Sequence record: NZ_CP094333.1 | From: a plasmid | Length of the DNA stretch: 64,000 nt | Direction: 5' to 3' (one strand) | Shown here: positions 3,146-21,388 of the stretch, one piece after another | Numbering within the stretch: position 1 is the first letter of the stretch | How the letters are laid out: each line of letters starts with the position of its first letter | Program-made: the position numbers and the translations under genes | The notes under the pieces: model-generated | Databases searched by the model: none | Seen by the model: the letters and a program-made list of their open reading frames with translations, nothing else | Told to the model about the DNA's origin: nothing

Positions 3146-3387
3146 CTTATTCCGGCGAGTGCAGAGGACACGCCGCATGACCTCCAGACCACCCCTGATA
3201 TGAAACGATCATGATCGGCGTGTCCCTGCGTAAAATATACATGCCTGGTTCACCGGAGAATATCTGTGATATCCACAAGTTTTCTGTCGCGCAGCCAGTC
3301 CTGCGCTTCACGCACCACACAACTGTCCGGTTTCACCGCTTTCAGCGATGATGCCAGTCGCTTGATCAACATCACCAGTTCCCGTGT

Positions 3388-3879
3388 CTATATGTCCGGC
3401 ATTGTCTCCGGCGGAGCAGGGGGACTCTCATTTCCGACGCTCATCCCATGCGCTTCCAGTGTGGCACGGACAAACCAGGCGGCATCGACCAGTTGCTGTC
3501 CAATCCAGGCCAGATCGGCATTTCTGTCACGGGCTGCCATTCGCTCGCCCGACAGCGCCTTGCTGATATGGCTGCGCACCAGATTATCCAGGAGTGCCTG
3601 CGCTTCTTCCGGTGAAAAGCCACCTGGTATCTCTGTGCGCAACAGCCCTTTCCTGTACAGAAGCTGCAGCAGATCAACCTGCGACCGCACAGCAACTATC
3701 AGTACATAACGGACAACATTCGCACTGGCAGTGGTTTCTGTATCATTCAGCAGTTCTTCCGGATCGTTCCCCCCGGTGTTGCAGAGCAACGGCAACAGAG
3801 GTCGCATCCACGCGGGAACCTGGTATTTTTCGTCTGATTTCATCATATTACGTTCTCCAGCTTGTTCGGGATCATCCAC
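3388..3879 (-). CDS. hypothetical leading-region protein (about 150-163 aa)
   Basis: ORF between ardA and psiA. The start may be the internal MMKSDEKYQ. No motif recognised. Confidence 0.45.
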   Translation of the reverse strand: MDDPEQAGERNMMKSDEKYQVPAWMRPLLPLLCNTGGNDPEELLNDTETTASANVVRYVLIVAVRSQVDLLQLLYRKGLLRTEIPGGFSPEEAQALLDNLVRSHISKALSGERMAARDRNADLAWIGQQLVDAAWFVRATLEAHGMSVGNESPPAPPETMPDI

Positions 3880-4562
3880 TGCTCAAGTGCACGTACCTGT
3901 ACCGGTGCACCACGACCGGCCTCACCGGCTTCAAAAATCAGCCGCCAGAGTGGTTCCTCCTGCCAGAAAAACCGGTCAAATGATGACAGTGATGGAAAAC
4001 GCCCGCACCACCCCCAGAAAATCGTTTCCAGATCATGCTCCTCAACAACACCAGACCAGCGGGACAACCAGCTTCCGACCGTGGCGGGAGTATGAAACGC
4101 AAGGTCAATCTGCGCCTGAGCAAAACATGTCTGGTATTCCAGTTCCCGTCGTTCTGCCTCACGTTCCCGCTGGCGGCTGTATTTCTGCTCTGTCAGCGTG
4201 GTTTTCTGACGACGACGCTCACCTTCACGAAAAGGCACGGACGGGAACAGACGGTGCCCCGCATCGGATGGCAGGGGAAGAACACAGACTTCCCCAAAAC
4301 TTTCAATCAGTTTATCCACGGCAGCCAGCCACAGGAGACGGTTGCCATGAAATTCCTCCTTCGTCAGCGCAGGGGCAAAAAAGCGGAGATCGGTCAGCGA
4401 AATCCGGCGACTGCCATTCAGGCAGCGAAAGAAAGCGGTGGCATAAGGCCATGCTGAAAGTGTGCGTCCCTGACGACGACGTTGTTCTGTGACAGCCACC
4501 GCCTGCATGGCGGCCTGTTGTTCTGCGCTGAGGGGGATCAGTGCCCGTGAACGTGCGCTCAT
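3843..4562 (-). CDS. psiA: plasmid SOS inhibition protein PsiA
   Basis: 239 aa, located downstream of psiB, with PsiA-like sequence (…[53 protein letters not shown]…). Confidence 0.85.
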
Positions 4563-4996
4563 GCCTGACCTCCTTCTGCCATCAGGATATGGATGATGTC
4601 GTTAACACTGTATCCCTGCGCATCCAGTGTCGCGGCAAGCGCCAGCGTGTGACTGATCGCGGCAGGCGTGAAGATATGTTGCACCTGAACGACGGCGAAA
4701 GGCTGTCCACCACCATTCACCAGAACCAGCATCCAGAGCTGAGAGACGTCTCCCGGCGAACATAATGCCAGGTGGAAACGTTCGTGGGCTGGCGTGAAAC
4801 GAACCTGGACGGGGAAAAAGCCCCCGAACTCGCTGCCATACTCTCCGTTCATCATCCAGTTAGCCGGTGCGTCCACTTTACGCATCACCTCGTGAGTGAG
4901 ATTACGGCGCATATCGCTTCCCGCAGCACGGATTTCTTCATATTCCTGGGCATTCATGGACTGCAGGGCATTCAGTGTCAGTTCGGTATTCATCAT
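4559..4996 (-). CDS. psiB: plasmid SOS inhibition protein PsiB
   Basis: 145 aa: [28 protein letters not shown]...[36 protein letters not shown]...[16 protein letters not shown] matches PsiB. Confidence 0.9.
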
Positions 4997-5047
4997 CGTA
5001 TTTCTCCCTCTGCCGCCCCGTCTCCGGCGGGGCGGTGTGGTTGTTCA

Positions 5048-7012
5048 TCAGGCGGCATCAGCCAGGTTATCGGCGCGTTCAGTGGCATCCGTCTGTGGAC
5101 GTGGTGAACACATCCAGCCAGGCACCCAGCGGTTGTCTTTCATATGGAACTCTGCATGTTCAGCGGCATCGCCTTTCTTCATCTTCTCTGCGTCCCGTGC
5201 GGCACCGGACAGTCCGGCATCATTCAGGGCTGCGATAATCTGCGGCTTTTTCAGGTGTCCGAAGAAGTTTGCTTTCGTCGGCTGCCACCAGTCGCGCATG
5301 TGAAAACCGATGGCGCTCTCCAGTGAGTCAAGCGGACTGCGTGACGTGCGACCACACTCGCGGGTCTGGACACCGTTAAGGCTGCATGCGGTGCAGAAAC
5401 TGAGCAGGGATAACAGCACCTCCTGACTGAGTGACAGGAACGTCGTCATGTCCCGTGACCATCCCTCCGGTAACAGGGCCGCAAGACGGGCTTTTTCTGC
5501 CATCAGCGCCAGGAATGCGGCACCTTCCTTCCCTGACGGCGCATCGCTGGTCAGCGAATAATGTTTACATTCCAGGCTGATTTGTGCTGGTTTACTGTAC
5601 GCTCCGCTGTCAAACACATTCAGGCAGAGCGTCCATGCCAGCAGTGCCAGAGATTTGTCCGGTTGCTGCATCAGTGCTGCCTGGACTGCCAGCGTGCGTT
5701 CGGAAGACATTTTCGTCAGCAACGGCAGACTGATTTCCTCCACTGACGCTTTCTCCTGCACCTGTTCCGTGCGGTCAGCGTCATCAGTCGCGTCATCTTC
5801 ACTGCGCAACTGCACACCACGCTGGACACACACATTACCGTAACGCCAGGACACCACCACGCCACTTCCGGCACGCATCTCCGGCGTCCACGCCCTGACC
5901 TTCGCCATGCAGCGCATCAGCTTCATTTCTGCTTCCAGCAGGTCGGATTCCTCACACTGGTTTTCCAGCGCGTCGTAACGCGTCATCAGTTCGTTCAGGC
6001 GTTCTTCTTCTGCCTCCGTCAGCACCGCTTCCGGCTCCGGCAGACAGCGGTATGTTCCGGCATCCTCACGGCACTCACCGACAGGCTCCATGCGTCCGGC
6101 GCACCATTCCCAGCCTTCGGCTTCCCGAAGGTGTTCAGCGACAGCCTGGAGTTTTTCCAGCAGGGCAGCATCGAGCGCCACGCGGTCGACATAACCGTCC
6201 CCGTCATCGCTGAACAAATCAGTACGCAGTTCGTCAGGTGAGAAAGCATCAGCCCCCACGAAGCGGAATTTACTGTTACCTGCCACCGCCACTTCACTTT
6301 CGGTCACCAGACGACGAATGGTCTGTACTTCCGGTTTACCGCCCCATCCCGACTGGCAGGCGGCTTCAAACACCTGCACCTGACGCGCGGTGTCGTTCTC
6401 CAGCGCCAGCGCCTGACAGTGCTCTGTGGTGATGCGGTCTTCTGCCAGCGCATCGAGGATGACAGGCGCAAGGTCTGCCAGTTTCAGCATTCGCTGAACG
6501 TGGCGGGGCGAATAGCCCAGCAAATCACCGATTTGTGCAGGCGTTTTGCCTTCCTGCGCCATCGCACGGAATCCGGCAATCTGTTCGGCAGGGTGCATAT
6601 CCCGACGATGACCGTTTTCAGTCATTGATGCAGCCGTCGCCAGCTCCTGCGGAATAACCTTCACGCGTACAGGCCAGTCAGCCGGAATGATGCCACGCTC
6701 TGCCAGCATGTTGAGTGCAGCCAGTCGGCGACCACCTGCGGCGACACCGTAACGGTCACCAGGCAGGGTATGCACGACCAGATTCTGCAGCAGTCCGACG
6801 CCCTTAATGGACTCCGCCAGTTCGCTGACGGACTCCGCAGAATACGGCACCGTGCGCACATTCAGCGGTGATTTAATCAGCGAGGCCAGCGGCACGCTCA
6901 CTTCCTCCGTCTGCGCCAGCAGGGCAGACAGGACAGTTTCCTGCGTTTTTACAGATTTACGGCTTGCTTTGCGGGTGGTTTCTGGTTCACACTTCGTTAC
7001 AGGCATAATCAT
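5048..7012 (-). CDS. ParB-like nuclease domain protein of plasmid leading regions (654 aa)
   Basis: The N-terminal ParB/Spo0J nuclease motif (…VPLASLIKSPLNVRTVPYSAESVSELAESIKGVGLLQNLVVH…GRRRLAALNMLAE…) and the roughly 650-aa size are typical of the F/ColIb leading-region ParB-like protein. Confidence 0.85.
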   Translation of the reverse strand: MIMPVTKCEPETTRKASRKSVKTQETVLSALLAQTEEVSVPLASLIKSPLNVRTVPYSAESVSELAESIKGVGLLQNLVVHTLPGDRYGVAAGGRRLAALNMLAERGIIPADWPVRVKVIPQELATAASMTENGHRRDMHPAEQIAGFRAMAQEGKTPAQIGDLLGYSPRHVQRMLKLADLAPVILDALAEDRITTEHCQALALENDTARQVQVFEAACQSGWGGKPEVQTIRRLVTESEVAVAGNSKFRFVGADAFSPDELRTDLFSDDGDGYVDRVALDAALLEKLQAVAEHLREAEGWEWCAGRMEPVGECREDAGTYRCLPEPEAVLTEAEEERLNELMTRYDALENQCEESDLLEAEMKLMRCMAKVRAWTPEMRAGSGVVVSWRYGNVCVQRGVQLRSEDDATDDADRTEQVQEKASVEEISLPLLTKMSSERTLAVQAALMQQPDKSLALLAWTLCLNVFDSGAYSKPAQISLECKHYSLTSDAPSGKEGAAFLALMAEKARLAALLPEGWSRDMTTFLSLSQEVLLSLLSFCTACSLNGVQTRECGRTSRSPLDSLESAIGFHMRDWWQPTKANFFGHLKKPQIIAALNDAGLSGAARDAEKMKKGDAAEHAEFHMKDNRWVPGWMCSPRPQTDATERADNLADAA

Positions 7013-7064: not shown

Positions 7065-7325
7065 TTACTTAAGAATCCCGAAATCCCTGATGTACTGGTT
7101 CATCCAGTACCCGGCACAGTCCTCAAAATTCCAGGAGCGCCAGATCAACGTGCCATCCTGACGGACAACCAGGCGAAAATGCGTTCCCTGATCATCCTCG
7201 ATAAAGACGTTCCGGTACTGTGCGGCAACGGCTTCCGCCTGTTCGCGGGTAAAGGAGCCGTCCGGCAGTCCCTGAAGTATTCTGAAATATTCGCTCATCC
7301 TCATATCTCCGGTGATGCCCCGCAC
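7065..7325 (-). CDS. hypothetical leading-region protein (86 aa)
   Basis: ORF between ssb and the ParB-like gene. No motif recognised. Confidence 0.45.
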
Positions 7326-7355
7326 AGGGCGGGGCGGTTGTCACAGTCAGCCCGA

Positions 7356-7844
7356 TCAGAACGGGATGTCGTCTGAAAACCCGTAATCCTCCCCCTCCGG
7401 CGGTTGCGGCTGAGGCTCTGGCTGCGCGGCCTTACGTCCACGGCCTTTCGTTTTCGCGCCACCTTTTTTCGTCGCGTCAGCACTCTGTGGCTGCCCATTC
7501 TGCTGAGGCTTCGGTTGCGCCTGAGCGTTCTGCTGTGGTGCACGTCCCAGCATCTGCACGGTGCCCGTGGTCTTAACAAGAATTTCAGTGACGTAACGGG
7601 TGATACCGTTATCTTCCCAGCTACGGGTGCGAAGCTGACCTTCGATGTAGACCTGCGCACCCTTGCACAGATATTCACCTGCCACTTCCGCGAGCTTGCC
7701 GAACAGCACCACGCGGTGCCATTCCGTCTGCTCCCGCATCTCCCCCGTCTGTTTGTCACGCCAGCTTTCTGATGTGGCCACCTGCAGGTTTGCCACTGCG
7801 CCCCCGTTGGGGATGTAACGGACTTCCGGATCATTGCCCAGACG
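7356..7844 (-). CDS. ssb: single-stranded DNA-binding protein SSB, exon 2 (codons 14-end)
   Basis: Minus-strand translation [58 protein letters not shown]...GFSDDIPF is F-plasmid-type SSB from residue 14 on. Upstream of codon R14 the frame diverges into intron sequence ending ...ccctac. Confidence 0.85.
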
Positions 7845-7990
7845 GTAGGGTAGGGTACGTGTGGTCTTTCAAGATAAATGGCGAATATGTCCTGCTTATC
7901 TTGAGTTAGATCACCGTTACCCCCCCTCCGAACCGTACGTGCACCTTTCAATGCATACGGCTCTCCATTGCTAGCTTATTGGGGATAAAC

Positions 7991-9892
7991 TCATTTAGCA
8001 GAATCCCCACTTGAGACAGGTGGTTGCAGGAGTATTCTTCCCTTTTCCTGTCTCAGATCGGGTAGTTTTCCGCTATGTAACTTGTCGTGGCAACTTGCGC
8101 ACAAAATCATCGTTTTCCGGCGGCGTGCGATCATCATTAGTTGCCACAGGCTGGGTTTATATCCGGCCTTACGACCTTTCTTCAGGTCTTTTAGCTTTCT
8201 GACATGATGTACTTCGCAGCGCCCAGTCTTCGCACAATACTCGCAGATCCTTGCCCCTAATCGACGCATGATCTCTGTTGTGCGGGTTGTGATATGTGCG
8301 GTTCTCGGTTCCGTATCGACAATCGTTGTTCGGTTGCGATTGACATGTTTGAGTTTGAAAACCTCAATCTTTCGGGATCCATTTTTGGCCTGAACGGTAA
8401 TAGCCAGATCTCCATTATTTTGCCGTAGCGATTTGGCGACTTTATTCACTGAACTACGTCGTTTATTCGCTAGGGTCTTAAAAAGGCTTATTTGCCATAT
8501 GAAATATAATTTTGATAATTTATATTTCATGTCCAGCGCCAGACTGTAGTAGTTCGCCAATCCGCGCATTTCCGCGTTGAAAGTCAGAACAATTTCAGCT
8601 TCACTGAGATTTTGTAGACTTGAACGATGTACAGCCTTCACATTCTCATAACAGCCATATTTCTTTTGGTGACAAAATTTAGCGGCTATATTGTCAGGAA
8701 CGAAGAGCTGCACAATTCCTGTGGTGGATCTCCGGAGAGCGTGCCGCCCTTGCATTTTCTGCTTCAGCAATTTCTTTGCATCTGCCTGTCTGATTTCATA
8801 GCCTAAAAAATTAACTCCTTCTGAGATATGGCGGATCCTGGTCTTTGCTTCATTAACTTCCAATCCCAGTGAAGTAGTAATAAAGTTTCTGACCTGTCTT
8901 GATATATGTTCAGCATCTTTCTTCGAGCCGATGACACCAATTACGAAGTCATCAGCATATCGAACATAGTACATACGCCTGAAGTTTGGATCGTTCATGA
9001 CCTGAGATGGTATAGAACGTTTTTCTTCAAGCAGTCGTTCAATTTCTTTCTTTATGGCTTCTTTTTCTGATTCAGAATCAGTTGCCATACCGTCTACTTT
9101 CTTTCGTAGTTTATGAATCTTATGGGCCAGCCTGTTCATATCTGGATTCGCTCTTCGTTTTGTACCGCTTGTATATGCAGGAATTAAGTTCTGTTCTACA
9201 AAACGGTCCAGTTTGTCGAGGTATATATTTGCCAGTAAGGGAGAAATTATCCCACCTTGTGGCGTGCCAGAATATGAGCGATGGTATTTCCAATTGTCCA
9301 CATATCCTGCCTTCAGCCACTGTTCGATTAATTTCAGGAAATTCTTATCCTTAATTTTCTCTGCCAGTGTATTCAGCAATAGTTTGTGGGGGATATTGTC
9401 AAAGAAACCTTTGATATCAACATCCACGATCCATTTAACTCCGTTCCAGACTGGACGAATAGATCTGAGCGCAGTTTCACACGAACGTTTTGGTCTGAAT
9501 CCATGAGAGTGTTCAGAGAATACTGGTTCATAAACCCTTTCCAGAATAATTCTTGCTACTTCTTGCGCCAGTTTATCGTCTCCACCTGGAATCCCCAGCG
9601 GTCTGGTTTTTCCGTCCTTTTTTGGGATCTGAACTCTGCGTACAGGTTTCGCTACGTATTCTCTACTCCGCAATGTTTTTGCCAGCTTCTCTGCTCTTTC
9701 GATAGAGAAGCCATCAATGGTATCTGTTGATACACCTTGAGTCAGTGCACCTGCATTGGCCCGTATATTCACGTAGGCTTGCAGCCACAGTCCGGGCTCA
9801 CACGCAATTTTGTATAGATTACGTACTGGATACCCTTTTTTTGAAGCATCCTCAATTCCATCTAATCTTTTCTCAAGTTCATCAGGCAGCAT
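7991..9892 (-). CDS. group II intron-encoded protein (reverse transcriptase/maturase/HNH endonuclease, 633 aa)
   Basis: RT motifs (…RPLGIPGGDDKLAQEV…, YVRYADDFVIGV), a maturase X region, and a C-terminal Zn-finger/HNH region (CEYCAKTGRCEVHHVRKLKDLKK…CASCHDKLHSG). Confidence 0.9.
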   Translation of the reverse strand: MLPDELEKRLDGIEDASKKGYPVRNLYKIACEPGLWLQAYVNIRANAGALTQGVSTDTIDGFSIERAEKLAKTLRSREYVAKPVRRVQIPKKDGKTRPLGIPGGDDKLAQEVARIILERVYEPVFSEHSHGFRPKRSCETALRSIRPVWNGVKWIVDVDIKGFFDNIPHKLLLNTLAEKIKDKNFLKLIEQWLKAGYVDNWKYHRSYSGTPQGGIISPLLANIYLDKLDRFVEQNLIPAYTSGTKRRANPDMNRLAHKIHKLRKKVDGMATDSESEKEAIKKEIERLLEEKRSIPSQVMNDPNFRRMYYVRYADDFVIGVIGSKKDAEHISRQVRNFITTSLGLEVNEAKTRIRHISEGVNFLGYEIRQADAKKLLKQKMQGRHALRRSTTGIVQLFVPDNIAAKFCHQKKYGCYENVKAVHRSSLQNLSEAEIVLTFNAEMRGLANYYSLALDMKYKLSKLYFIWQISLFKTLANKRRSSVNKVAKSLRQNNGDLAITVQAKNGSRKIEVFKLKHVNRNRTTIVDTEPRTAHITTRTTEIMRRLGARICEYCAKTGRCEVHHVRKLKDLKKGRKAGYKPSLWQLMMIARRRKTMILCASCHDKLHSGKLPDLRQEKGRILLQPPVSSGDSAK

Positions 9893-10385
9893 TGGCTAAC
9901 CCTCCTCTTAGAGATTGATGTATCTAACAACTGTCTCCCTTCCCCGCAGCACTGTGAGGCTTTCATCTCCCTTCCGGTTGATTTATACCTTTGCTGCTTC
10001 CGTATAATGCGGACTGCCGTAGCCCATTACAGGCCGACCTTGAGTACTATGGAGACTCCGCTACCATGCTGGGTATAAATCCAGTTTAGGTAGTCCCGTA
10101 GTTTCACGGTGTGGAGATGCGATGTACTTAGGATGTCTTTCGATCGTTTAACTATTTCATCAATAGCTGGCCCGTTAGAGTGGTCACAATCAACGTAGGG
10201 CGGATTTCTTGTGCTATTACGGGAATAACGCTTCAATCGTTCTGCGTTATTGGTTTCCTGTTTCCCACATAGATCTCGACTTCAACAAACCCAGTTTATC
10301 CATATACATCTTGCATTGAGTGGTGATACTTAGTAACCGGCTCATTTAAACCGTCTGGTCTGTTTCCTCCGGCTCTACAAAAATA

Positions 10386-11063
10386 ATGTCCATCATTTTT
10401 AATGGACACTATCGTATGAAACACCGGACCTGGATCACTGAAGCTTTACGTCTTCACTTTGAAGAACATTTACCCCGGGTTGTGGCCGGGCGTCGCCTGG
10501 GTGTACCAAAATCAACAGTTTGTAGTATGTTCGTGCGCTTTCGGAGAGCTGGCCTTTCGTGGCCTTTGCCCGCAGGCATGTCGGAGCAGGAACTTGATGC
10601 CTGCCTTTACGGACAATTTTCCACGGTACCAGTCGTACGTCCTGAAAGCACCGTTATATCCGAAGCCCCCATGGTAAAAAAACGTCCCCGGCGGCCCAAC
10701 TTCCCTTATGAGTTTAAAATCGCCTTAGTGGAGCAGTCACTGCAGCCCGGAGCCTGTGTGGCGCAGATCGCCCGGGAAAACGGAATCAACGATAACCTGC
10801 TCTTCAACTGGCGCCATCAATACCGGAAAGGTGGCCTGCTGCCTTCCGGAAAAAATATGCCGGCACTGCTTCCCGTGACGTTAACGCCGGAGCCGGATAA
10901 TAAAATCCCGGCCCCCGCACAGGAACCAGAGCAGATAAATACACCGTCCGACAGTCTGTGTTGTGAGCTGGTTCTGCCGGCCGGAACTCTCAGGCTTAAA
11001 GGTAAACTGACGCCGGCGTTATTACAGACACTTATCCGCGAAATAAAAGGGAGCAGCCACTGA
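10386..11063 (+). CDS. tnpA: IS66-family accessory protein TnpA (orf1)
   Basis: The C-terminal half (…KKRPRRPNFPYEFKIALVEQSLQPGACVAQIARENGINDNLLFNWRHQYRKGG…) is IS66 orf1-like. The N-terminal part has an HTH resembling IS21 IstA (AGLSWPLPAGMSEQELDACLY). The true start is probably MKHRTW at 10416. Confidence 0.7.
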   Translation: MSIIFNGHYRMKHRTWITEALRLHFEEHLPRVVAGRRLGVPKSTVCSMFVRFRRAGLSWPLPAGMSEQELDACLYGQFSTVPVVRPESTVISEAPMVKKRPRRPNFPYEFKIALVEQSLQPGACVAQIARENGINDNLLFNWRHQYRKGGLLPSGKNMPALLPVTLTPEPDNKIPAPAQEPEQINTPSDSLCCELVLPAGTLRLKGKLTPALLQTLIREIKGSSH

Positions 11064-11410
11064 TGATATCTCTCCCTGCAGGTTCGCGTATCTGGCTGGT
11101 TGCAGGTATCACCGATATGCGAAATGGCTTTAACGGCCTGGCATCAAAAGTTCAGAACGTCCTGAAGGATGACCCGTTCTCCGGACACCTGTTCATCTTC
11201 CGCGGACGCCGGGGTGACCAGATAAAAGTGTTGTGGGCTGACAGTGACGGACTGTGCCTCTTCACCAAACGCCTGGAGCGGGGCCGCTTCGTCTGGCCAG
11301 TCACCCGTGACGGCAAGGTGCACCTTACTCCGGCTCAGTTATCCATGCTTCTTGAAGGTATCAACTGGAAGCACCCGAAACGAACGGAACGCGCTGGAAT
11401 CCGCATATAA
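11063..11410 (+). CDS. tnpB: IS66-family TnpB (orf2, 115 aa)
   Basis: MISLPAGSRIWLVAGITDMRNGFNGLASKVQNVLKDDPFSGHLFIFRGRRGDQIKVLWADSDGLCLFTKRLERGRFVWP is the highly conserved IS66 orf2. Confidence 0.9.
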   Translation: MISLPAGSRIWLVAGITDMRNGFNGLASKVQNVLKDDPFSGHLFIFRGRRGDQIKVLWADSDGLCLFTKRLERGRFVWPVTRDGKVHLTPAQLSMLLEGINWKHPKRTERAGIRI

Positions 11411-11429
11411 CCCGTTGTAAAGTGAGGAT

Positions 11430-13001
11430 ATGGACACCTCACTTGCTCATGAGAACGCCCGCCTGCGGGCACTGTTGCAGACGCAACAGGACACCATCCG
11501 CCAGATGGCTGAATACAACCGCCTGCTCTCACAGCGGGTGGCGGCTTATGCTTCCGAAATCAACCGGCTGAAGGCGCTGGTTGCGAAACTGCAACGTATG
11601 CAGTTCGGTAAAAGCTCAGAAAAACTTCGTGCAAAAACCGAACGGCAGATACAGGAAGCACAGGAGCGAATCAGCGCACTTCAGGAAGAAATGGCGGAAA
11701 CGCTGGGTGAGCAATATGACCCGGTACTGCCATCCGCCCTGCGCCAGTCTTCAGCCCGTAAACCGTTACCGGCCTCACTTCCCCGTGAAACCCGGGTTAT
11801 CCGGCCGGAAGAGGAATGCTGTCCTGCCTGTGGTGGTGAACTCAGTTCTCTGGGATGTGATGTGTCAGAGCAACTGGAGCTTATCAGCAGCGCCTTTAAG
11901 GTTATCGAAACACAACGTCCGAAACAGGCCTGTTGCCGGTGCGACCATATCGTGCAGGCACCAGTACCTTCAAAACCCATTGCACGCAGTTATGCCGGAG
12001 CGGGGCTTCTGGCCCATGTTGTCACCGGGAAATATGCAGACCATCTGCCGTTATACCGCCAGTCAGAAATATACCGTCGTCAGGGAGTGGAGCTGAGCCG
12101 TGCCACACTGGGGCGCTGGACAGGTGCTGTTGCTGAACTGCTGGAGCCGCTGTATGACGTCCTGCGCCAGTATGTGCTGATGCCCGGTAAAGTCCATGCT
12201 GATGATATCCCCGTCCCGGTCCAGGAGCCGGGCAGCGGTAAAACCCGGACAGCCCGGCTGTGGGTCTACGTCCGTGATGACCGTAACGCCGGTTCACAGA
12301 TGCCCCCGGCGGTCTGGTTCGCGTACAGTCCGGACCGGAAAGGTATCCATCCACAAAATCACCTGGCCGGTTACAGCGGTGTGCTTCAGGCCGATGCTTA
12401 CGGTGGTTACCGGGCGTTATACGAATCCGGCAGAATAACGGAAGCCGCGTGTATGGCTCATGCCCGGAGAAAAATCCACGATGTGCATGCAAGAGCGCCC
12501 ACCTACATCACCACGGAAGCCCTGCAGCGTATCGGTGAACTGTATGCCATCGAGGCAGAGGTCCGGGGCTGTTCAGCAGAACAGCGTCTGGCGGCAAGAA
12601 AAGCCAGAGCCGCGCCACTGATGCAGTCACTGTATGACTGGATACAGCAACAGATGAAAACACTGTCGCGTCACTCAGATACGGCAAAAGCGTTCGCATA
12701 CCTGCTGAAACAGTGGGATGCACTGAACGTGTACTGCAGTAATGGCTGGGTGGAAATCGACAACAACATCGCAGAGAACGCCTTACGGGGAGTGGCCGTA
12801 GGCCGGAAAAACTGGATGTTCGCGGGTTCCGACAGCGGTGGTGAACATGCGGCGGTGTTGTACTCGCTGATCGGCACATGCCGTCTGAACAATGTGGAGC
12901 CAGAAAAGTGGCTGCGTTACGTCATTGAACATATCCAGGACTGGCCGGCAAACCGGGTACGCGATCTGTTGCCCTGGAAAGTTGATCTGAGCTCTCAGTA
13001 A
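11430..13001 (+). CDS. tnpC: IS66-family transposase TnpC (orf3, 523 aa)
   Basis: Leucine-zipper N-terminus, a CxxC…CxxC zinc finger (CPACGGEL…CCRCDH), and the DDE core typical of IS66 TnpC. Confidence 0.9.
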
Positions 13002-13212
13002 ATATCAATACGGTTCTGACGAGTCGCTTACGATACTTATAACGATTTCCGTATTCACCACCCTTTTCTGTGGATGCTATGTTCACCTCTCCTTTTCAGG
13101 ATCTCCGAGCCTGTTACCAAGCGAGGCTAACCACAGTATGCAATGGCTATACCACTAAGCCATGTTGCTTTTCATGCAACACTCCATAAAACACCGCGCT
13201 TCAACGGCGCAC

Positions 13213-13251
13213 CCCGACGAGGATGACCTTGTTGATACCACGTGCACTCAT
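13213..13251 (-). CDS. ssb: SSB exon 1 (codons 1-13: MSARGINKVILVG)
   Basis: The reverse complement of 13213-13251 is atgagtgcacgtggtatcaacaaggtcatcctcgtcggg, which translates to MSARGINKVILVG. It is followed immediately by gtgcgcc, a group II intron 5' consensus. Joined to exon 2 it gives ...[26 protein letters not shown], identical in pattern to F SSB. Confidence 0.7.
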
Positions 13252-13324
13252 AAGAACCTCCTGACTGAAAGATGTGAGATAAACCGGATACCGGCGACGG
13301 GACGTTCATGTGCCCCTTCAGAGG

Positions 13325-13823
13325 AGCGAAAGCTCCTCCTGCCGTCCACTTCACAGGGGTTTCTCCCCGCAGTGGACCTTTCCGATGGGGGCCCGTTTAC
13401 CGCCTCACGGGACAGCTGCCCGGGGGCGGACGCAAAATTTTTAGCCGGGTTCATGGCTAAAAATTTTGTGGCCGGTGCATCTCACCCTGGACAGATGGAA
13501 CGGGAGGGGGTTACGTCTGCCCCCCGGAAAGTCCACAGCGGGAAACAGGCCGCAGGGGTGGCGGCAGGAGGGAAGACTGCTGCGCCATCAGGCGCAGTTT
13601 CCTCACACACCGTCAGGTGTGCAGGGAGCGCAGGTCACGGCGCGACAGGGGCGGCGCGACCGGAACGGTCGCTGCAAGCCGGGTTTTCACGCATCGGACC
13701 GTAGCGGCAGCCCGAAACCGCGCCAGCGGGTTCGGCGGAGACTGGCGGGTGCGCCAGCAGCTGCCTGTCGGAGTCGGGCCTGACGACCGGATGCCGCCAG
13801 GCAGCCGGGAGCCGAAGTGGGCG
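13325..13823. repeat. leading-region repeat family 1, copy B (5' part), directly 5' of ssb exon 1. It is interrupted at 13823/13824 by group II intron 2.
   Basis: Aligns with 1620-2117 of copy A. The alignment breaks after gcagccgggagccgaag, where GTGCGAC begins. Confidence 0.6.
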
Positions 13824-16170
13824 GTGCGACAGGAAGTCGCTTAACGTATTGTTTTACATTGATAAAACCAGCTATCCCATTAGCTGTAGCCTACCGGGAC
13901 AGGCGCTGCCGGCAACGGCGGGGTCTGAAGCTCCCGGGACAACGAGAGCCGGGCGTCAGCCCGGGTAAAGCCCCGTGAGGGGCTTTACCTTGCTGCAAGC
14001 ATCATGTGGCAGGAGAGCAAGGCTGGTCAGAAGGGTTAACACATGTGAACTGTTGATAAACACCGTTATCGGCAACAGGCCAAAGATGCTGACAGGCCTG
14101 AACCAAAAGGTACGGGGTCCGGTTGCTACCTCGCGCACAGGGAGCACATGGGCGCAGAGACCCCCGGTGAAGAGACAGAACCCGCCCTGACCCTCTGTAT
14201 GTTAAGCGGAACCTGGTAAACCCGTATCGCTGCCTTACAGGCAGGTGAACCGTAAGGAACACTGTAGGCGGTGCGGGCAGAGGAGGACGGAAAAAGCAAA
14301 TGCCCGGTTGTAATGACCGGGATACGGGGCAGGTTCCCCGACGCGAAAGCGGGCAGACTTCCGTCTGGTCTTTAATTGCATGAAAAGCTGTAAAGCAGTC
14401 AAAAGGATATCAGCGAGATGAATACACACATCAGTGTGTCCACGATACCCCACCCGACAGGCTGGCACACCATAGACTGGAAAGCATGCCATGCCCGGGT
14501 GCGAAAGCTACAGTTACGGATTGCAAAGGCAACCCGACAGCAACAATGGCGGCAGGTCAGAGAACTACAGCGCATCCTCACCCGCTCATTCTCCGGCAAA
14601 GCCGTGGCTGTCAGGCGTGTAACTGAAAATACCGGTAAAAGGACACCCGGTATTGACGGAAAAATATGGCACACACCGAAGGAGAAATGGGAAGGAATAT
14701 GCAGCCTGAATCTGTGTGGTTACAGGCCACAGCCACTACGGCGAATACATATCCCAAAATCAAACGGCAAAACGCGACCGCTGGGCATACCCACAATGAG
14801 GGACCGGGCCATGCAGGCACTGTGGCTGCTGGCTCTGGAACCCGTATCCGAGACCACTGCTGACCATAACAGCTATGGTTTCAGACCAATGCGCAGCACG
14901 CATGACGCCATTGAGTCCATTTTTCTGCGGATGAGCCAGAAAGTATCGCCCAAATGGATACTGGAGGGCGATATTAAAGGGTGTTTCGATAACATCAGCC
15001 ATGACTGGCTGCTTTCCCATATTCCGATGGACAGGAGACTGCTTAAAAAATGGTTGAAAGCAGGTTACATGGAAAGAGGCGTGTTTAACCATACGAACAG
15101 CGGGACACCGCAGGGAGGCATCATATCCCCTGTTCTCGCCAACATGGCTCTGGACGGACTGGAGAAGGAACTGATGCAAACGTTCAGGAAAAGTGGTTAT
15201 CACAGTGCAAAGCACCAGGTGAATTATGTGAGATATGCTGATGATTTCATCTGTTCAGGCAGCTCCCGTGAATTGCTGGAAAATGAGGTCAGACCACTGA
15301 TTGCAGCTTTCATGCGCGAACGAGGGCTGGAACTGTCGGAAGAAAAAACCGCGATTACACATATAGATAAAGGCTTCGACTTTTTAGGGCAGAACGTCAG
15401 GAAGTACAACGGTAAAATGCTGATTAAACCGTCGAAGAAAAACCTGAAGAACTTCCTCTGTAAAGTCAGAGAAATAATTAAACGCAATCCGACGCTCCCG
15501 GCATGGAAACTGATAGGCCAGCTAAACCCGGTAATCCGGGGATGGGCTACCTATCACCGACACGTCGTGGCGAAAGAAACATTTAATTATGTCGACACCC
15601 AAATCTGGCGAGCTATATGGCGATGGTGTGTAAGAAGGCACCCCCGAAAAGGATTGCGGTGGATCGCCGGACGATACTTCTCCTTTGAAGGCAGGCGCTG
15701 GATCTTTAAAGCCATAACCCCGGAAGGGAAAATTCTGACTCTCTTCCGGGCAATGGAAACACCGATAAAGCGCCATATAAAAATCAAAGGCGAAGCAACA
15801 CCATACACCCCCGGAATGGAAATCTACTTTGAACGTCGTCTGGATCTAATCTGGAAAGGCAAATCAAAGAAGATGAAGACAGTAGTTCAACTCTGGAAGA
15901 GGCAGGGGAAACACTGTCCGCAGTGCGGACAACCCATAACCAACCAGACCGGATGGAATATACATCACCGGATCAGGAAAGTTATGGGCGGCAGTGACGA
16001 ACTGACCAATCTCGAGTTGTTACATCCGAACTGCCACCGACAGTTACACAGCAGGGAAGCCGGTGCTCACCGAAAGCACTTATAAAGGCTTGAGCGGAGT
16101 GCGGGGAAACTCGCACGCTCCGTTCTTAGGGGGCGGCGGCGCAGCAATGTGCCGCTGCTACCCGACCAAT
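13824..16170 (+). mobile_element. group II intron 2 (different lineage from intron 1) inserted in repeat family 1 copy B
   Basis: 5' GTGCGAC at 13824. IEP 14418-16085. Domain V GAGCGGAGTGCGGGGAAACTCGCACGCTCCGTTC at 16093-16126. The 3' boundary is approximate (16160-16250); repeat homology resumes near 16250. Confidence 0.7.
14418..16085 (+). CDS. group II intron-encoded reverse transcriptase/maturase with HNH endonuclease domain (555 aa)
   Basis: RT blocks (…RPLGIPTMRDRAMQ…, YVRYADDFICSG), domain X, and a C-terminal CPQCG…HHRIRKVMGGSDELTNLELLHPNCHRQLHS. Confidence 0.9.
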   Translation: MNTHISVSTIPHPTGWHTIDWKACHARVRKLQLRIAKATRQQQWRQVRELQRILTRSFSGKAVAVRRVTENTGKRTPGIDGKIWHTPKEKWEGICSLNLCGYRPQPLRRIHIPKSNGKTRPLGIPTMRDRAMQALWLLALEPVSETTADHNSYGFRPMRSTHDAIESIFLRMSQKVSPKWILEGDIKGCFDNISHDWLLSHIPMDRRLLKKWLKAGYMERGVFNHTNSGTPQGGIISPVLANMALDGLEKELMQTFRKSGYHSAKHQVNYVRYADDFICSGSSRELLENEVRPLIAAFMRERGLELSEEKTAITHIDKGFDFLGQNVRKYNGKMLIKPSKKNLKNFLCKVREIIKRNPTLPAWKLIGQLNPVIRGWATYHRHVVAKETFNYVDTQIWRAIWRWCVRRHPRKGLRWIAGRYFSFEGRRWIFKAITPEGKILTLFRAMETPIKRHIKIKGEATPYTPGMEIYFERRLDLIWKGKSKKMKTVVQLWKRQGKHCPQCGQPITNQTGWNIHHRIRKVMGGSDELTNLELLHPNCHRQLHSREAGAHRKHL

Positions 16171-16249
16171 AAAAGACAGCCAGAAACGGTGACAGTGTCA
16201 CGGAATATCACACCTGTTCCCTGCATACAGCCATACACTACCTTCTGAC

Positions 16250-16345
16250 CGGAAAGCCGGGCCGGCAGCGCCGCAGGCGCTGCACCCCGCATTTCCGGCA
16301 GGCGTCAGCCTGCCAGGGGTTTTCGCGCGGGCTGACAGGCGGCCT
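16250..16345. repeat. leading-region repeat family 1, copy B (3' part, downstream of intron 2)
   Basis: gggccggcagcgccgcaggcgctgcaccccgcatttccggcaggcgtcagcctgccagggg matches 2175-2260 of copy A. Confidence 0.5.
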
Positions 16346-16362
16346 CCACCGCCTGCCCTGTA

Positions 16363-16554
16363 TCACCTGTTTCTGCTGCCCTGAAGGATATAGTGACCAC
16401 CGAGGAAAACCGCCTGCTGATTCGCCACAAAATCGCAGATTTCATCAACAATCTGCGCAGTGGTGAGCGGTTTCTGCCCCATTTCACGACGCCGCGCATT
16501 AATCACGGCTTTGTAATTGCGCAGAATTTCGCGGGTTTCTGTGCTGATATTCAT
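16363..16554 (-). CDS. hypothetical small protein (63 aa), translationally coupled to the upstream DUF1380-like gene
   Basis: ATGA start/stop overlap at 16551-16554. Confidence 0.35.
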   Translation of the reverse strand: MNISTETREILRNYKAVINARRREMGQKPLTTAQIVDEICDFVANQQAVFLGGHYILQGSRNR

Positions 16555-16973
16555 GACATGTGCTCCCCGTCCAGCGCCTGTAACACAACGTCCATTGCTT
16601 CGCGTTCTTCCCTGACGAACGCATCACCGTCGCCCCCGTTCTCACTCCCGACGGCATACAGGCGCTTCATTTCACTGCCTGCCAGCGCCAACACTTTTTC
16701 CAGCATCACCGCCGGGACTGTCACCTGACGGCTGGCGCGCTTTTCTTCCATCAGTTCACGAACAACGTCGTGAACAACGCTGACATCCGCACCATGCTCA
16801 AAGGCATCGTCCAGCCGCTGCATGACAGTTTCCAGCTCATCGTCTGTCAGACTCCAGTCCTGGGCTATGTGACGCACATCCCCACGGGTCAGCACCACGG
16901 CAAAAACGCATTCACTGTCCGGCACGTCTGTATCCAGCACTTCGCGGATAATTTCTTTAACAGTACAGTACAT
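16551..16973 (-). CDS. DUF1380-like leading-region protein (140 aa)
   Basis: Acidic protein of about 140 aa (MYCTVKEIIREVLDTDVPDSE…). It is a paralogue of the 18679-19113 product and typical of IncF/IncI leading regions. Confidence 0.5.
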   Translation of the reverse strand: MYCTVKEIIREVLDTDVPDSECVFAVVLTRGDVRHIAQDWSLTDDELETVMQRLDDAFEHGADVSVVHDVVRELMEEKRASRQVTVPAVMLEKVLALAGSEMKRLYAVGSENGGDGDAFVREEREAMDVVLQALDGEHMS

Positions 16974-17019
16974 GTTCTCGTCTCCTTTACAGGGGCGGCA
17001 TTGCCGCCCCGTCCGTTAA

Positions 17020-17445
17020 TCAGTCCAGAGCCGCGTAAATCGCGTTGCATTCAGGGTGAAATTCGATGTGACGCCACAACTGCGCATCGCGCATCCGGTA
17101 AAGCTGGGTCAGTCCTGCATCCCCGCTGTCGTGGTACAGCCACAACTGGCGGTTAATCACAAGGGAGGTAAGGATGATGCCTGAGGCATCAGCACTCACG
17201 GTACGGTCAAACCAGTTTGCACCGTTCACCATGTGGAAACGGTCACCGTCCGGCATCATGTAACCGCCACCGTCCGGCAGGCGGATGAAGTGCCAGAAGC
17301 CGCCCTGATATTCCGGCATCATTTTTTGCGCCAGCGCGTACACATACGCCTCGGCATACAGAAAATCGTTGCCAAACAGATACGGCAGAAAGGAGAGACG
17401 GTCGCACTCTTCAACGTTCAGAGTGACAGGTTTCGCATATTGCAT
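17020..17445 (-). CDS. klcA: antirestriction protein KlcA/ArdB family (141 aa)
   Basis: …[51 protein letters not shown]…[21 protein letters not shown]… matches the KlcA/ArdB fold family. Confidence 0.85.
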
Positions 17446-17461
17446 GATGTTTTCCTCCGTT

Positions 17462-17800
17462 GTTCACATATTCCGCGACACCGGGCGGTGCCGTGCCTCC
17501 ATAAAAGCCGGGCGAACAGGCGGGGATGCAGGGGCGCAAGGGAAGCCGCAGCCTGACGCACACGGCTGGCGGGAGTTGCAGGGTGAGGCCGCGAAACCTG
17601 AGCGGGCGAACGACCGGAAAATCACGGCAGACGGGAAGGAGGGACCGGGTGACCGCAGCGGCGAAGCGTACCCTTGCATCAACGCCAGCCCGGCTAAGAT
17701 GGAGGCACGGCACAGCCCGCACACGGCGCTGAGGCCACATAACTGAAAACCCATAAGGCCATGCCCGCATGGCCGGGTAAAGCGGAGCCGGCGGCGACGT
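17462..17800. repeat. leading-region repeat family 2, copy B (directly 5' of klcA)
   Basis: About 95% identical to 2810-3145. The track ORFs 17411-17857 and 17464-17754 are translations of this repeat. Confidence 0.6.
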
Positions 17801-17856
17801 CCTTTGTGCTCTGTCCGGGACCGGCAGGAAAAAGGCGGGGATTTTCCCCGCCATCA

Positions 17857-18633
17857 TCAGCCCCTGATTTTTGCCGGGGCATCCGCCATGCTGCGGATTT
17901 CGGCCCGGGCTTCCCGGACCACCTCCCGCAGAACACCACGGTCAAACCACCGGCGGGGCGGTTCATCCGGTATACGCAGCACATCGCAGGCCAGCCCACT
18001 GGACAGGATATGCTCCACACACTCACTGACCAGATACATTTCCACCGCCGAAAAACGTGCTCCCCGGTTCAGGATGGCATCGAGCACCACGGGCAGGTTT
18101 TCGTCGTCTTCATCGAGCCAGCAGGGGTGATCGCTTTCCTTCACAACCAGGCGAAAGCGGCGCGTCTGGCGGGTCAGCAACGTCTGACCGGTTGTGGTCA
18201 GCGCCGCCCTGATACGCTGCGCATCTTCTGCCACCCGGCAACTGACACTGCGTACCGCATCGCGCACTGCATCAAGAACTGCCCTGATTTCGTCTTCGGT
18301 CAGCCATTCTCCGGCATACGGGAAAAACACCTGTGTTCCGTCTGCCGGAAGTACCGGCAGCGACTGCCACTGACTGCCAGACAGTACCAGTTCCGCCCCG
18401 GTTCCGGTCAGTTTCTGAATGGCGGAGGCCAGGAGCGGCGGCAGTACGCCGCCGTGACGGTTGATGAGTAACATCGCCAGCCGGGGCGCATCCAGCAGAA
18501 CATAAATGCTGATCCAGCCCGGATACTTCGGGTTCCGCTGGTCAACATCCGTCTCTTCCGGCCAGCCCTGCGCCAGCAGCAGGTTGCGGGCGTGACGACA
18601 AATCAGTGCGTTCAGTGTTGTGTTTTCGTTCAT
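17857..18633 (-). CDS. hypothetical leading-region protein (258 aa)
   Basis: Long clean ORF with no motif recognised. The stop of the 18679-19113 gene lies 45 nt upstream. Confidence 0.5.
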
Positions 18634-18678
18634 GATTAATCGTTCTCCCTGAATCGCCGCCCGGAGGCGGCGATAACA

Positions 18679-19113
18679 TCAGTCGTTTTCGTGTCTATTG
18701 TTTTTCAGCAGGGTGCGGGCCTGATTAATCACCGCCTGACGGCGGGTGACGCATTCCGGGACGGCGAGGCCATGATCCCGGGCGGCCCATTCACGTTTCC
18801 ACAATGCCTGTTCAGCGGTCTGAATCAGGGACGCCAGCAGTTCAGCAGGGACGGTCACCTGGCGGTTTTCGCTCACGTTATTGATGATCTCCATCGCCAC
18901 GCCGGAAGAAATACCGGATTCAGTCCGCTGGTCTTCCGGGATGTCCTCCAGGCGCGCCAGGACGGTTCTGATTTCATGATCGGACAGGGAAATATCCATT
19001 CCGTCAGCGAGGGCCTGAATCTCTTCCGGGGACCAGATAACCAGCATCAGCGGCATGTCTCCCGGATACTTTACTGCCAGCTCCCGGCATAGCGTTTCGC
19101 ATGTTCCGTACAT
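18679..19113 (-). CDS. DUF1380-like leading-region protein (144 aa)
   Basis: Paralogue of 16551-16973. Shared segments include …RQVTVPAELL…, …QALWKRE… and …LARLEDIPED…. Confidence 0.5.
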   Translation of the reverse strand: MYGTCETLCRELAVKYPGDMPLMLVIWSPEEIQALADGMDISLSDHEIRTVLARLEDIPEDQRTESGISSGVAMEIINNVSENRQVTVPAELLASLIQTAEQALWKREWAARDHGLAVPECVTRRQAVINQARTLLKNNRHEND

Positions 19114-19126
19114 TCTCGTCTCCTTC

Positions 19127-19348
19127 TCAATCTTTAAAGCACGCTTCCAGTTCCAGAATTTCGGTATATGCCTCCATCAGGAGGCGGTTTGCGCGAAACA
19201 GCGTCTGACGCACCAGACGTTCCGGCAGGGTGTCGGCATTAAAGCTGTACCGCTGCTCCATCTCATTCATGGTTGTACGCAGGTCGCACATGGCATTGGC
19301 CACCTCCGCCACTTCGGCGCGCAGTTTTTCGTGTCCTGCATAGTTCAT
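19127..19348 (-). CDS. hypothetical small protein (73 aa)
   Basis: The ORF ends 1 nt before the methyltransferase stop... that is, its start abuts the end of the MTase gene (19349), suggesting an operon. Confidence 0.4.
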   Translation of the reverse strand: MNYAGHEKLRAEVAEVANAMCDLRTTMNEMEQRYSFNADTLPERLVRQTLFRANRLLMEAYTEILELEACFKD

Positions 19349-20032
19349 TTACGCAGCCTCCGGCATAAACCAGTCATCATTCGCGGCCCCCTGCTGCATG
19401 GCCCGTTGCACGGCGGCAAGGCGTTGCTGCCCGGCACGGTGATACTGCTCAAGCAGCTCGATACCGATATACCGGCGTCCGGACTGGAGGGCGGCGACGC
19501 AGGTTGAGCCGCTGCCTGCAAACGGGTCCAGCACAATTGCGTTCGGGTGTGTGAAGTTCTCAATCAGCGGTTGCAGGCTGGTAACGGGCTTTTCCGTCGG
19601 GTGATGGCGATTGCCCGAATATTTCCAGCCCAGCACGTCCGGCAGCGGGTTTTGTGGCAGACGTGGACGGCCTTTTGCCAGGATGTAGGCGCATTCGTGG
19701 CGATAGCCCACATATGCGGCCTTCGATGTGTAGTTTTTGGTGAAGACCAGGTGACCAACAACGCTGAATCCCGCATTTTTCCAGGCGGCCATAAAGCGAT
19801 CGACGCGGTTCCAGCCGTAGAAGCTCACCATTAACGCGTCTTTTTTCAGCACGCGGAACATTTCATTACAGGCCGGTTGCAGCCATTCATCGGTTTTATC
19901 GCCGGCGATGGTGCGCCCGGAACGGTCACGGAAACCGACGAGATATGGCGGGTCGGTGAGGATGAAATCAATGGCGTTATCAGGGATACGGGCCATAACA
20001 TCGATGCAGTTACCGAGGACAAAACGGGACAT
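19349..20032 (-). CDS. orphan N6-adenine DNA methyltransferase (227 aa)
   Basis: DPPY catalytic motif (DFILTDPPYLVGF) and SAM-binding region (LDPFAGSGSTCVAA). No adjacent restriction gene is present. Confidence 0.85.
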   Translation of the reverse strand: MSRFVLGNCIDVMARIPDNAIDFILTDPPYLVGFRDRSGRTIAGDKTDEWLQPACNEMFRVLKKDALMVSFYGWNRVDRFMAAWKNAGFSVVGHLVFTKNYTSKAAYVGYRHECAYILAKGRPRLPQNPLPDVLGWKYSGNRHHPTEKPVTSLQPLIENFTHPNAIVLDPFAGSGSTCVAALQSGRRYIGIELLEQYHRAGQQRLAAVQRAMQQGAANDDWFMPEAA

Positions 20033-20368
20033 AACAACACTCCTTTTTTCACAGAGGGCACCGGGAGGGCCCCCCTGTGGTGCCCGTTCCCCGCTGCCTG
20101 TGGGCTGTTCACCGCGTCCGGTAACGGGTCAGGCCGACCGTGGAATATCGCAGCCGTCGTCTTTTTGACGGCGAGAATATGCCGCGAAAGCGGCTTGAAG
20201 GGCGTTCATCAGAAAAGGGCGACGGGCTGGCGTACACTGTCACCGGTGCCAGCCGGGAGCGGTAAAAGCGCCCGTCCCGTGCCCGCCGGACGCGGGACAC
20301 TGACCACAGGCAGCGTTTATGCCGCGCCGCGTCAGCCGGCGCAGTAAAAAGAGGAGCACGGCGACATC

Positions 20369-20398
20369 CTTTGTCGGAAAAGAAACGGGCGGTTGCCC
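20369..20398 (-). terminator. putative intrinsic terminator downstream of the 323-aa gene
   Basis: Perfect 8-bp stem ACGGGCGG/CCGCCCGT with a 4-nt loop, followed on the minus strand by ttcttttcc. Confidence 0.5.
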
Positions 20399-20416
20399 GC
20401 CCGTCTCCGTCATACT

Positions 20417-21388
20417 TCATCCCCCGTAATGCGCCACCTTGTCGACTATCCACGCAGGTCCTGTGACTTCCGGCAGCTCATCGTCATCTGTCGGGGAAGA
20501 CCATTCCAGTTCCCCCCACAGCACATCAACGAGCTCTCCGCGCTCATACAACTGCCAGCCACAGAAATTGCAGCCCTGTTCGGCGTACCAGTGCTCCAGC
20601 GTGCAGCCGAAACGGCGGCTTAATGCTGCAACAACGTCGCTTTCCGGCTGACACCACGGCGTGTCGAAATCAACCTGAATGAAGTTGTCTCCCTGACTAC
20701 TGATATTCAGGTCATACCCACAAGGCCACTTCACGCCATACCGTTCTGTATACCAGTGATATGCAGAAGGAACACCGTTCAGAACACCACCATTAAAGCC
20801 ATTCACTTCAACATCCAGGCGGGTCGGCAGAACCGTCAGCAGGTCAAACGGCATGGTTTTTTCCGGCAGTACGTTGTCACACAGACGGTTCCACCACACC
20901 GATACATCCTCGTTACCCCAGATGTCACACCAGTCACCTCTTTTTGCGGTGAAATGCACAGTGATAGTTTCCCTGACATCATCCGGTAACTCTTCCCAGC
21001 GACGCTGTCCAGTACCGCTCTGCAGCCAGAGTTCATGCAGCATCAGGCAGTTTTGCTCATCCAGCAGTACACCGTTCTGCAGGTGTGTCAGCCAGCGGGT
21101 GAACGCGATATTTTCCGGTGATACAGCACCACGTCCGGCAACCGTCACTCCGGGGCACTGCTCAGAGCGGATATTTTCAGTGATCTGCAGAAGTCCGGCA
21201 CTTCCGGCCAGAAACAGCTGAATACCTTCATTTGTGGCGCGGCGATAAAGCGGTGTGACTGCACCGCTGGCCAGTCGTTTAATCTCAGCGATCTGTGCTG
21301 GTTCACCAGAAAAATACATACGATTCGAGCACCAGTTTGGCATGGGAATTCTCCTCTCACATGCGGCCTCCATCAGGCCGTGCCGCAC
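20417..21388 (-). CDS. hypothetical leading-region protein (about 300-323 aa, Trp/Cys-rich)
   Basis: Long ORF. The start may be the internal MPNWCSNRMYF. No catalytic motif recognised. Confidence 0.55.
   Translation of the reverse strand: MRHGLMEAACERRIPMPNWCSNRMYFSGEPAQIAEIKRLASGAVTPLYRRATNEGIQLFLAGSAGLLQITENIRSEQCPGVTVAGRGAVSPENIAFTRWLTHLQNGVLLDEQNCLMLHELWLQSGTGQRRWEELPDDVRETITVHFTAKRGDWCDIWGNEDVSVWWNRLCDNVLPEKTMPFDLLTVLPTRLDVEVNGFNGGVLNGVPSAYHWYTERYGVKWPCGYDLNISSQGDNFIQVDFDTPWCQPESDVVAALSRRFGCTLEHWYAEQGCNFCGWQLYERGELVDVLWGELEWSSPTDDDELPEVTGPAWIVDKVAHYGG

Follow-up and report, generated by a model that had tools for sequence, protein, structure and literature searches.

The plasmid stretch analysed here (64,000 nucleotides of sequence record NZ_CP094333.1, called the window) carries nested mobile elements in its leading region. 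The gene ssb is split between its Gly13 and Arg14 codons by a group II intron, and the intron is in turn interrupted by an insertion sequence (IS) of the IS66 family. The nesting is real and lies in the leading region of an IncI1-type plasmid. By sequence identity, the intron is E.c.I11 and the IS is ISCro1, which recently entered a hairpin of intron domain I. As a consequence, this ssb is probably null or strongly reduced and the intron immobilised. E.c.I11, ISCro1 and plasmid ssb are all known and widespread, and the nesting is a case of ordinary recent transposition.

Exon 1 of ssb runs from 13251 to 13213 on the minus strand (DNA ATGAGTGCACGTGGTATCAACAAGGTCATCCTCGTCGGG), encodes MSARGINKVILVG and is followed by GTGCGCC. 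The intron including the IS occupies 13212-7845 (minus). Exon 2 lies at 7844-7356 (minus) and ends with ...DDIPF, the stop codon being included. It begins with CGTCTGGGCAATGATCCGGAA... (protein RLGNDPE...) and is preceded by ...CCCTACCCTAC / ...ACGTACCCTACCCTAC. Both exon edges, the second one after ...CCCTAC, were read directly and are as given in an earlier note made from the letters of this DNA. Comparators were obtained from a megablast of 7300-13300 against PLSDB. In NZ_CP151330, ssb is uninterrupted, and positions 1-88 and 5457-6001 of the query are contiguous there. Therefore, both splice junctions are fixed to the base and the intron is exactly 13212-7845. Plasmid pDETEC6 carries the same intron at the same ssb site without the IS, and pR11-698-2 carries the same intron with ISCro1 at a different place. 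Aligned with the intron-less ssb and the IS-less intron, every junction is set to the base; the two alignments bear out the nested architecture of ssb, group II intron and IS66-family element proposed in the earlier note. Joining the exons gives, as had been predicted, an in-frame SSB of 175 aa (Pfam SSB PF00436, E 1.8e-36, residues 6-108), in which the acidic C-terminal tip (...DDIPF) is kept. This product is one residue apart from the SSB of NZ_CP151330 (C73 vs R73). Cys73, encoded by codon 73 in exon 2, is also found in the SSB of IS-less pDETEC6. Therefore, the C73 change is not decay that followed the IS insertion.

The IS is complete, with 2699 bp at 10333-13031 on the plus strand, antisense to ssb, and matches the ISCro1 annotated in NZ_CP151330 with 100% identity over all 2699 bp. 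Its three open reading frames (ORFs) are intact and carry IS66 domains in Pfam. They are tnpA (10386-11063, HTH_Tnp_1), tnpB (11063-11410, TnpB_IS66) and the DDE transposase gene tnpC (11430-13001, DDE_Tnp_IS66, E 2.5e-103), all on the plus strand. The ends of the element, GTAACCGGCTC... and GTAAGCGACTC... (inverted), form imperfect terminal inverted repeats beginning with GTAA (GTAACCG.../GTAAGCG...). The 8-bp target-site duplication TAAGTATC is found at 13039-13032 and 10332-10325, both on the minus strand, and in pDETEC6 it is present as a single copy at the empty site. With the three ORFs, the 8-bp duplication and the terminal inverted repeats all present, the element is, on sequence grounds, ISCro1 of the IS66 family. 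It shares the three-ORF organisation, the 8-bp duplication and the GTAA... inverted repeats with known ISCro1 and is itself no different; only its target, a group II intron hairpin, is notable.

Because the duplicated octamer corresponds to intron nt 174-181, the IS follows nt 181. The earlier note had correctly placed an IS66-family insertion in domain I of the intron, but its position, 70 nt from the 5' end, does not hold. The correct join, 13212-13032 + 10324-7845, produces an intron of 2661 nt with 0 mismatches to intact copies. The join given before (13212-13143 + 10311-7845) was rejected, since the target duplication defines the other join and 133 nt of real intron would be removed; its boundaries are off by about 110 nt on one side and by 22 nt on the other. 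Neither the intron nor exon 2 has diverged from the IS-less copy, and the insertion is therefore taken to be recent. The insertion point is in the apical part of a hairpin, intron nt 150-188, which is backed by compensatory pairs. In the modelled fold this hairpin is assigned to a peripheral, Ic2-like arm of domain I, upstream of the exon-binding sites EBS2 and EBS1.

Other copies of the same intron have been hit as well. In pR11-698-2 (NZ_CP107157.1), a separate ISCro1 at 3338-6037 is inserted in the opposite orientation with the duplication AAACAGGA; its target is the EBS2 loop, equivalent to intron nt 243-250. In CP124978.1, an IS3-family element lies within the reverse transcriptase (RT) ORF of the intron. 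The GC content is 44% for the intron and 59% for the ssb exons. The repeated hits could reflect either a target preference of ISCro1 for the AT-richer intron or just relaxed selection, and the insertions in pR11-698-2 and CP124978 fit weak selection to keep the intron spliceable.

Identity and structure of the intron

The 5' segment of E.c.I11 (nt 1-181, starting with GTGCGCC) is located at 13212-13032 on the minus strand and contains the first part of domain I. The 3' segment (nt 182-2661) at 10324-7845 (minus) contains the rest of domain I, domains II and III, domain IV with the ORF, and domains V and VI. The intron ends, GTGCG at the 5' side and ...CCCTAC at the 3' side, follow the GUGYG / AY rule for group II introns. 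Domain V, as stated in the earlier note, is present. Rfam RF00029 covers 7845-7965 with 65.4 bits (gathering score 40, E 1.3e-10). From this alignment together with folding, domain V (GAGCCGUAUGCAUUGAAAGGUGCACGUACGGUUC) was placed at 7963-7930 (minus), and, with a minimum-free-energy fold, domain VI and the 3' end (...CCCUACCCUAC) were placed at 7927-7845 (minus). A bulged branch-point A is found at 7851, 7 nt from the 3' splice site, and its motif is conserved in all relatives. The Rfam D1-D4 models gave no match beyond domains V/VI on an intact intron copy. This blank is taken as missing model coverage of the class and not as absent structure, because the comparative fold of domains I-III is well supported. 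The RNAalifold consensus from the 5' regions of nine relatives contains 157 pairs, 88 of them with compensatory changes, and its covariation term is -22.8 kcal/mol. In the modelled fold, a closing stem with a series of hairpins resembles a standard domain I, and domains II and III come next. After these, the start of domain IV, labelled from the fold, would carry the ribosome-binding site.

The intron-encoded protein (7991-9892, minus) has 633 aa and its ORF is intact. It carries the Pfam domains RVT_1, Intron_maturas2 and an AI2M-like HNH, which agrees with the RT/maturase/HNH ORF read earlier from the letters; the RT is joined by maturase domain X and an HNH endonuclease. The protein is identical to WP_000936285.1 and aligns end to end with LtrA of the Lactococcus lactis intron Ll.LtrB (PDB 5g2x, residues 25-604, E 5.5e-119). 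Domain V is presumably also Ll.LtrB-like. On these sequence features the intron belongs to the Ll.LtrB-like, IIA / mitochondrial-like (ML) class of group II introns. Both Ll.LtrB and E.c.I11 lie inside an ORF of a conjugative element and expression of the gene depends on splicing. They share the structural class, a homologous protein and exon recognition by EBS1, EBS2 and delta, and differ in the host gene (the relaxase gene ltrB vs ssb in the leading region), the host phylum and the target sequence.

With the IS removed, the intron has 0 mismatches in 2661 nt to the copies of pDETEC6 (IncI-gamma/K1), pECAZ146_1 (IncF) and pEC958 (IncF). One group II intron, named E.c.I11, was described for pEC958 outside its two resistance regions (PMC4398462). 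The pEC958 record was screened for a second RT gene over its first 50 kb. The pEC958 copy encodes the identical protein (WP_000936285.1) and is at the same site in ssb; in RefSeq, the protein is annotated as ltrA with a truncated ssb downstream. Given the 2661/2661 identical nucleotides and the fitting location, the intron of the window is, by sequence, E.c.I11. In pEC958 the intron is uninterrupted, whereas ISCro1 follows nt 181 here, and the exon allele at the junction is GTCGGT there and GTCGGG here. The pEC958 paper makes no mention that E.c.I11 lies in ssb (PMC4398462).

Exon recognition and the ssb-homing lineage

Relatives of E.c.I11 were collected by a genome contig scan, which gave two loci only, and then by protein search and contig look-ups. 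The scan gave the copy of Xenorhabdus budapestensis (L006), with 79% nucleotide and 84% protein identity to E.c.I11. Further relatives at 76-49% protein identity came from the protein search and look-ups. The same ssb codon junction is used by nine distinct introns, namely E.c.I11 and eight relatives with 84-50% protein identity. The junction is VILVG / RLG in E.c.I11 itself (100%) and VILVG / HLG in L006 (84%). It is VTLIG / NVG in L008 (75%) and L014/L015 (72%), VIIVG / NLG in L010 (74%) and L012 (67%), and ... / HLG in L013 (66%). In L016 (54%), from a metagenome-assembled genome (MAG) of Ktedonobacteraceae, it is IMLIG / NLG, and in L019 (50%), found in an element context with AcaB, SLT and RadC, it is VTLIG / NLG. 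L011 (76%) has kept the ssb 5' exon and lost the 3' exon. Judged from sequence, E.c.I11 belongs to a lineage of Ll.LtrB-like introns that keeps to one ssb codon junction, ...[VI]G / [RHN][LV]G.... Its range extends from Enterobacterales plasmids to the Ktedonobacteraceae MAG, and most of the readable contexts are mobile elements. Three relatives at 49-55% are in other genes. L018 (1201-3770) is in a Rad52/Rad22-family gene and L020 (1906-4480) in a phage-integrase-family gene. L017 (158-2720) is a twintron located in the TPQGG/ISP motif of the RT ORF of another group II intron. Several targets in the clade are single-stranded DNA or recombination genes.

The elements EBS1, delta and EBS2 were all located and covary with the exons. 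Their partners, the intron-binding sites IBS2 (-12..-8) and IBS1 (-7..-1), form the last 12 nt of exon 1 on the minus strand. EBS1, CCCUACG (intron nt 306-312; 10200-10194, minus), lies in the loop of a covarying hairpin and pairs with exon 1 from -1 to -7. The adjacent delta G (nt 305; 10201, minus) pairs with the first base of exon 2. A delta next to EBS1 is the IIA arrangement. EBS2, AGGAA (nt 247-251; 10259-10255, minus), is in a hairpin loop and pairs with exon 1 from -8 to -11. A first EBS2 candidate at intron nt 149-156, with an 8-bp match to exon -15..-8, was rejected since it occupies the 5' side of a stem that covaries.

Position -6 of the EBS1 pairing covaries without exception in eight ssb introns (G-C in five, A-U in three). 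The delta/+1 pair is formed in 9/9 intron/exon combinations with a known 3' exon; it is G-C in the E.c.I11 and Xenorhabdus introns and U-A in six other introns including the twintron L017. The EBS2 register is constant over nine introns and covaries at -9, -10 and -11. EBS2 of L016 makes five perfect pairs with its exon, and that of L017 (CCUGAG) makes a perfect 6 bp with its own different target. The mismatches between EBS and IBS are confined to -1, -4 and -7, which are codon third positions. The EBS elements of the lineage thus seem to follow codon positions 1 and 2 and to tolerate third-position mismatch. Identical E.c.I11 is present in three ssb alleles (GTCGGG, GTGGGA and GTCGGT), which differ at -1, -4, -7 and -10, near the junction only at codon third positions. 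This spread over three alleles supports homing with third-position tolerance, as far as sequence can tell.

The ssb-homing lineage may matter more than the nested insertion, and neither the lineage nor any group II intron in ssb was found described in the searchable literature. The nested insertion itself is a minor event, in which a common IS has recently, and probably just this once, disrupted an accessory gene of the plasmid. If the lineage is indeed undescribed, it would be a clean natural case of a retroelement that persists by targeting an invariant protein motif, which can be likened to homing endonucleases and inteins.

Effect of the insertion on splicing

An intact E.c.I11 would be transcribed together with ssb, and its RT/maturase/HNH protein would aid splicing to restore the 175-aa SSB frame. 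The ribonucleoprotein would retrohome into empty ssb alleles, reading the exon from -12 to +1 via EBS2, EBS1 and delta and tolerating mismatches at codon third positions. After the arrival of ISCro1, the two strands of the 7-bp hairpin stem would have to pair over a distance of 2.7 kb of IS RNA that is antisense and untranslated. Inefficient folding of domain I and premature termination would then be probable, and transcription may fall short of exon 2. The outcome would be little or no spliced ssb mRNA and an immobilised intron, possibly with lower expression of the downstream DUF905, ParB-like, psiB and psiA genes. Loss of splicing, and hence of plasmid SSB, is likely. The host would tolerate this loss since the essential function is covered by the ssb of the chromosome. 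In the literature on F and ColIb-P9, the plasmid gene is generally regarded as dispensable, and the chromosomal gene as essential and sufficient. This sufficiency would explain the survival of broken plasmid ssb alleles.

Several points weigh against a complete loss. The IS lies in a peripheral loop outside the catalytic core, on the 5' side of EBS2 and EBS1, and it has left the ribozyme core, the exon-binding sites, the protein ORF and both exons intact. An Ll.LtrB split at domain I nt 172, also upstream of EBS1/2, trans-splices about 240,000-fold over background with LtrA. A promoter and terminator scan of 7300-13900 gave counts not above shuffled sequence, which say nothing on polarity or outward promoters; within the IS, the terminator signal on the ssb strand was not above chance. 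In addition, EBS1-IBS1 has one internal mismatch with the plasmid's own exon, U-C at -4. The statement of the earlier note that the insertion should abolish splicing was therefore a reasonable inference stated with too much certainty, considering the peripheral hairpin and the trans-splicing of split Ll.LtrB.

The strongest rival is that splicing continues at a lower level despite the IS and some SSB is made, either in cis with the 2.7-kb IS looped out or in trans between 5' and 3' transcripts. The efficient trans-splicing of the nt 172 split with LtrA and the intactness of the catalytic and exon-binding elements and of the protein ORF speak for it. So do the apical position of the insertion, which has left both strands of the 7-bp hairpin stem unbroken, and the lack of decay in exon 2. 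However, an untranslated antisense RNA stretch of 2.7 kb would probably tend to misfold and to be terminated early, and the scan revealed no promoter-like site pointing from the IS into the 3' segment of the intron (counts not above shuffled). The undecayed exon 2 may only reflect a recent insertion. Taken together, residual splicing is unlikely, and a null or strongly reduced ssb is preferred.

A related and more doubtful idea is that ISCro1 has turned E.c.I11 into a naturally split group II intron of a bacterium, whose halves might assemble in cis or in trans to give some spliced ssb mRNA. The break in domain I is, by count, nine nt from the engineered split of Ll.LtrB at nt 172 (S4), which was modelled on Chlamydomonas psaA intron 1. 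With these fragmented introns the present one shares a domain I break upstream of EBS2/EBS1 and complementary strands on either side of the break that could reassociate. In contrast to them, its parts are still linked by the 2.7 kb IS on one DNA strand. If this idea were true, the beginning of the path by which a cis-splicing intron becomes fragmented could be observed. The nest also recalls twintrons, of which the relative L017 is a true one, in that a mobile element lies within a mobile element within a gene. However, ISCro1 as the inner element is a DNA transposon with no means of leaving the RNA, and thus the arrangement is not self-correcting.

It is very improbable that the interrupting element was a dead retroelement remnant and ssb a pseudogene before the IS arrived. 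Splicing of E.c.I11 is predicted from its sequence, and the single EBS1 mismatch with the plasmid's exon counts for this reading. However, the ORF is intact, hundreds of plasmids and three ssb alleles carry an identical copy, every hallmark of the ribozyme is there, with covariation among relatives, and exon 2 is open and conserved in intron-bearing alleles. Least credible is an assembly artefact, a repeat-mediated misjoin of ISCro1: the element is multicopy in many strains and the exact IS/intron junction had no true match in 72,556 PLSDB plasmids or 5,426 complete E. coli genomes (the sole match with >80% coverage was two pieces spread over 303 bp), but the clean junctions with a perfect 8-bp direct duplication, single-copy at the empty site, are the signature of a real IS66-family transposition, and a separate ISCro1 insertion exists in the same intron of pR11-698-2.

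Spread among plasmids and neighbouring features

The junction of E.c.I11 with ssb exon 2 was found in at least 476 PLSDB plasmids of the IncI, IncK, IncB/O and IncF groups. Thus, the view in the earlier note that an intron inside a plasmid ssb ORF is unusual has to be dropped. The argument from rarity also fails by class, as the type member of the Ll.LtrB-like introns sits within a plasmid relaxase ORF. The 5' 613 nt of the intron are present in 440 PLSDB plasmids at ≥90% identity, all but one of them at ≥95%. The exon 1/intron junction with IncI-type upstream sequence is present in 122 plasmids, and more occur in IncF backgrounds. The sequence of ssb exon 2 is matched by more than 5,000 plasmids; therefore, the occupancy by the intron is below about 10%. 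About 476 sequenced resistance plasmids would thus need RNA splicing to express an early leading-region gene. The IS-broken copies of E.c.I11 offer natural experiments on whether a plasmid requires its own SSB.

Movement of such an intron has been recorded. In two replicate evolved lines, a group II intron entered the leading region of the IncI1 plasmid p15ESBL (Benz et al. 2023, PMC10104558). Both p1ESBL and a co-resident IncF plasmid carried this intron, and it entered at its p1ESBL position (PMC10104558). The site was not said to be ssb in that study, and the movement fits active homing.

A second, unrelated group II intron of 2343 bp lies at 13824-16166 (+), 572 bp upstream of the ssb start codon and on the opposite strand. 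Its 5' end is GTGCGAC, and it is matched by Rfam RF02012 D1D4-7 and RF00029. Its protein of 555 aa (14418-16085) has RVT_N, RVT_1, GIIM and HNH domains. This intron is absent from pR11-698-2, pDETEC6 and NZ_CP151330, but at least 1010 PLSDB records contain the same junction. Many plasmids have repeated copies of the flank that it targets, which is possibly a single-strand promoter repeat of the ssi/Frpo type. With the ssb intron, ISCro1 and the second intron, the ssb locus has been struck by three mobile elements. In pEC958, the leading-region genes ardA, ssb, psiB and hok (10745-26879) all point toward traM. If oriT of pEC958 is just before traM, as we infer, the transferred strand would template these four genes. 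The sense strand of the ssb intron would then be the non-transferred one, and that of the window's second intron the transferred one.

Elsewhere in the window, three Rfam matches at gathering level were recorded. PK-repZ at 51093-51241 (-, 194.5 bits) marks the IncI1-type replicon. A C4 antisense RNA is found at 52094-52181 (+, 77.5 bits), and the attI / aminoglycoside leader of a class 1 integron at 42555-42633 (-, 71.2 bits).

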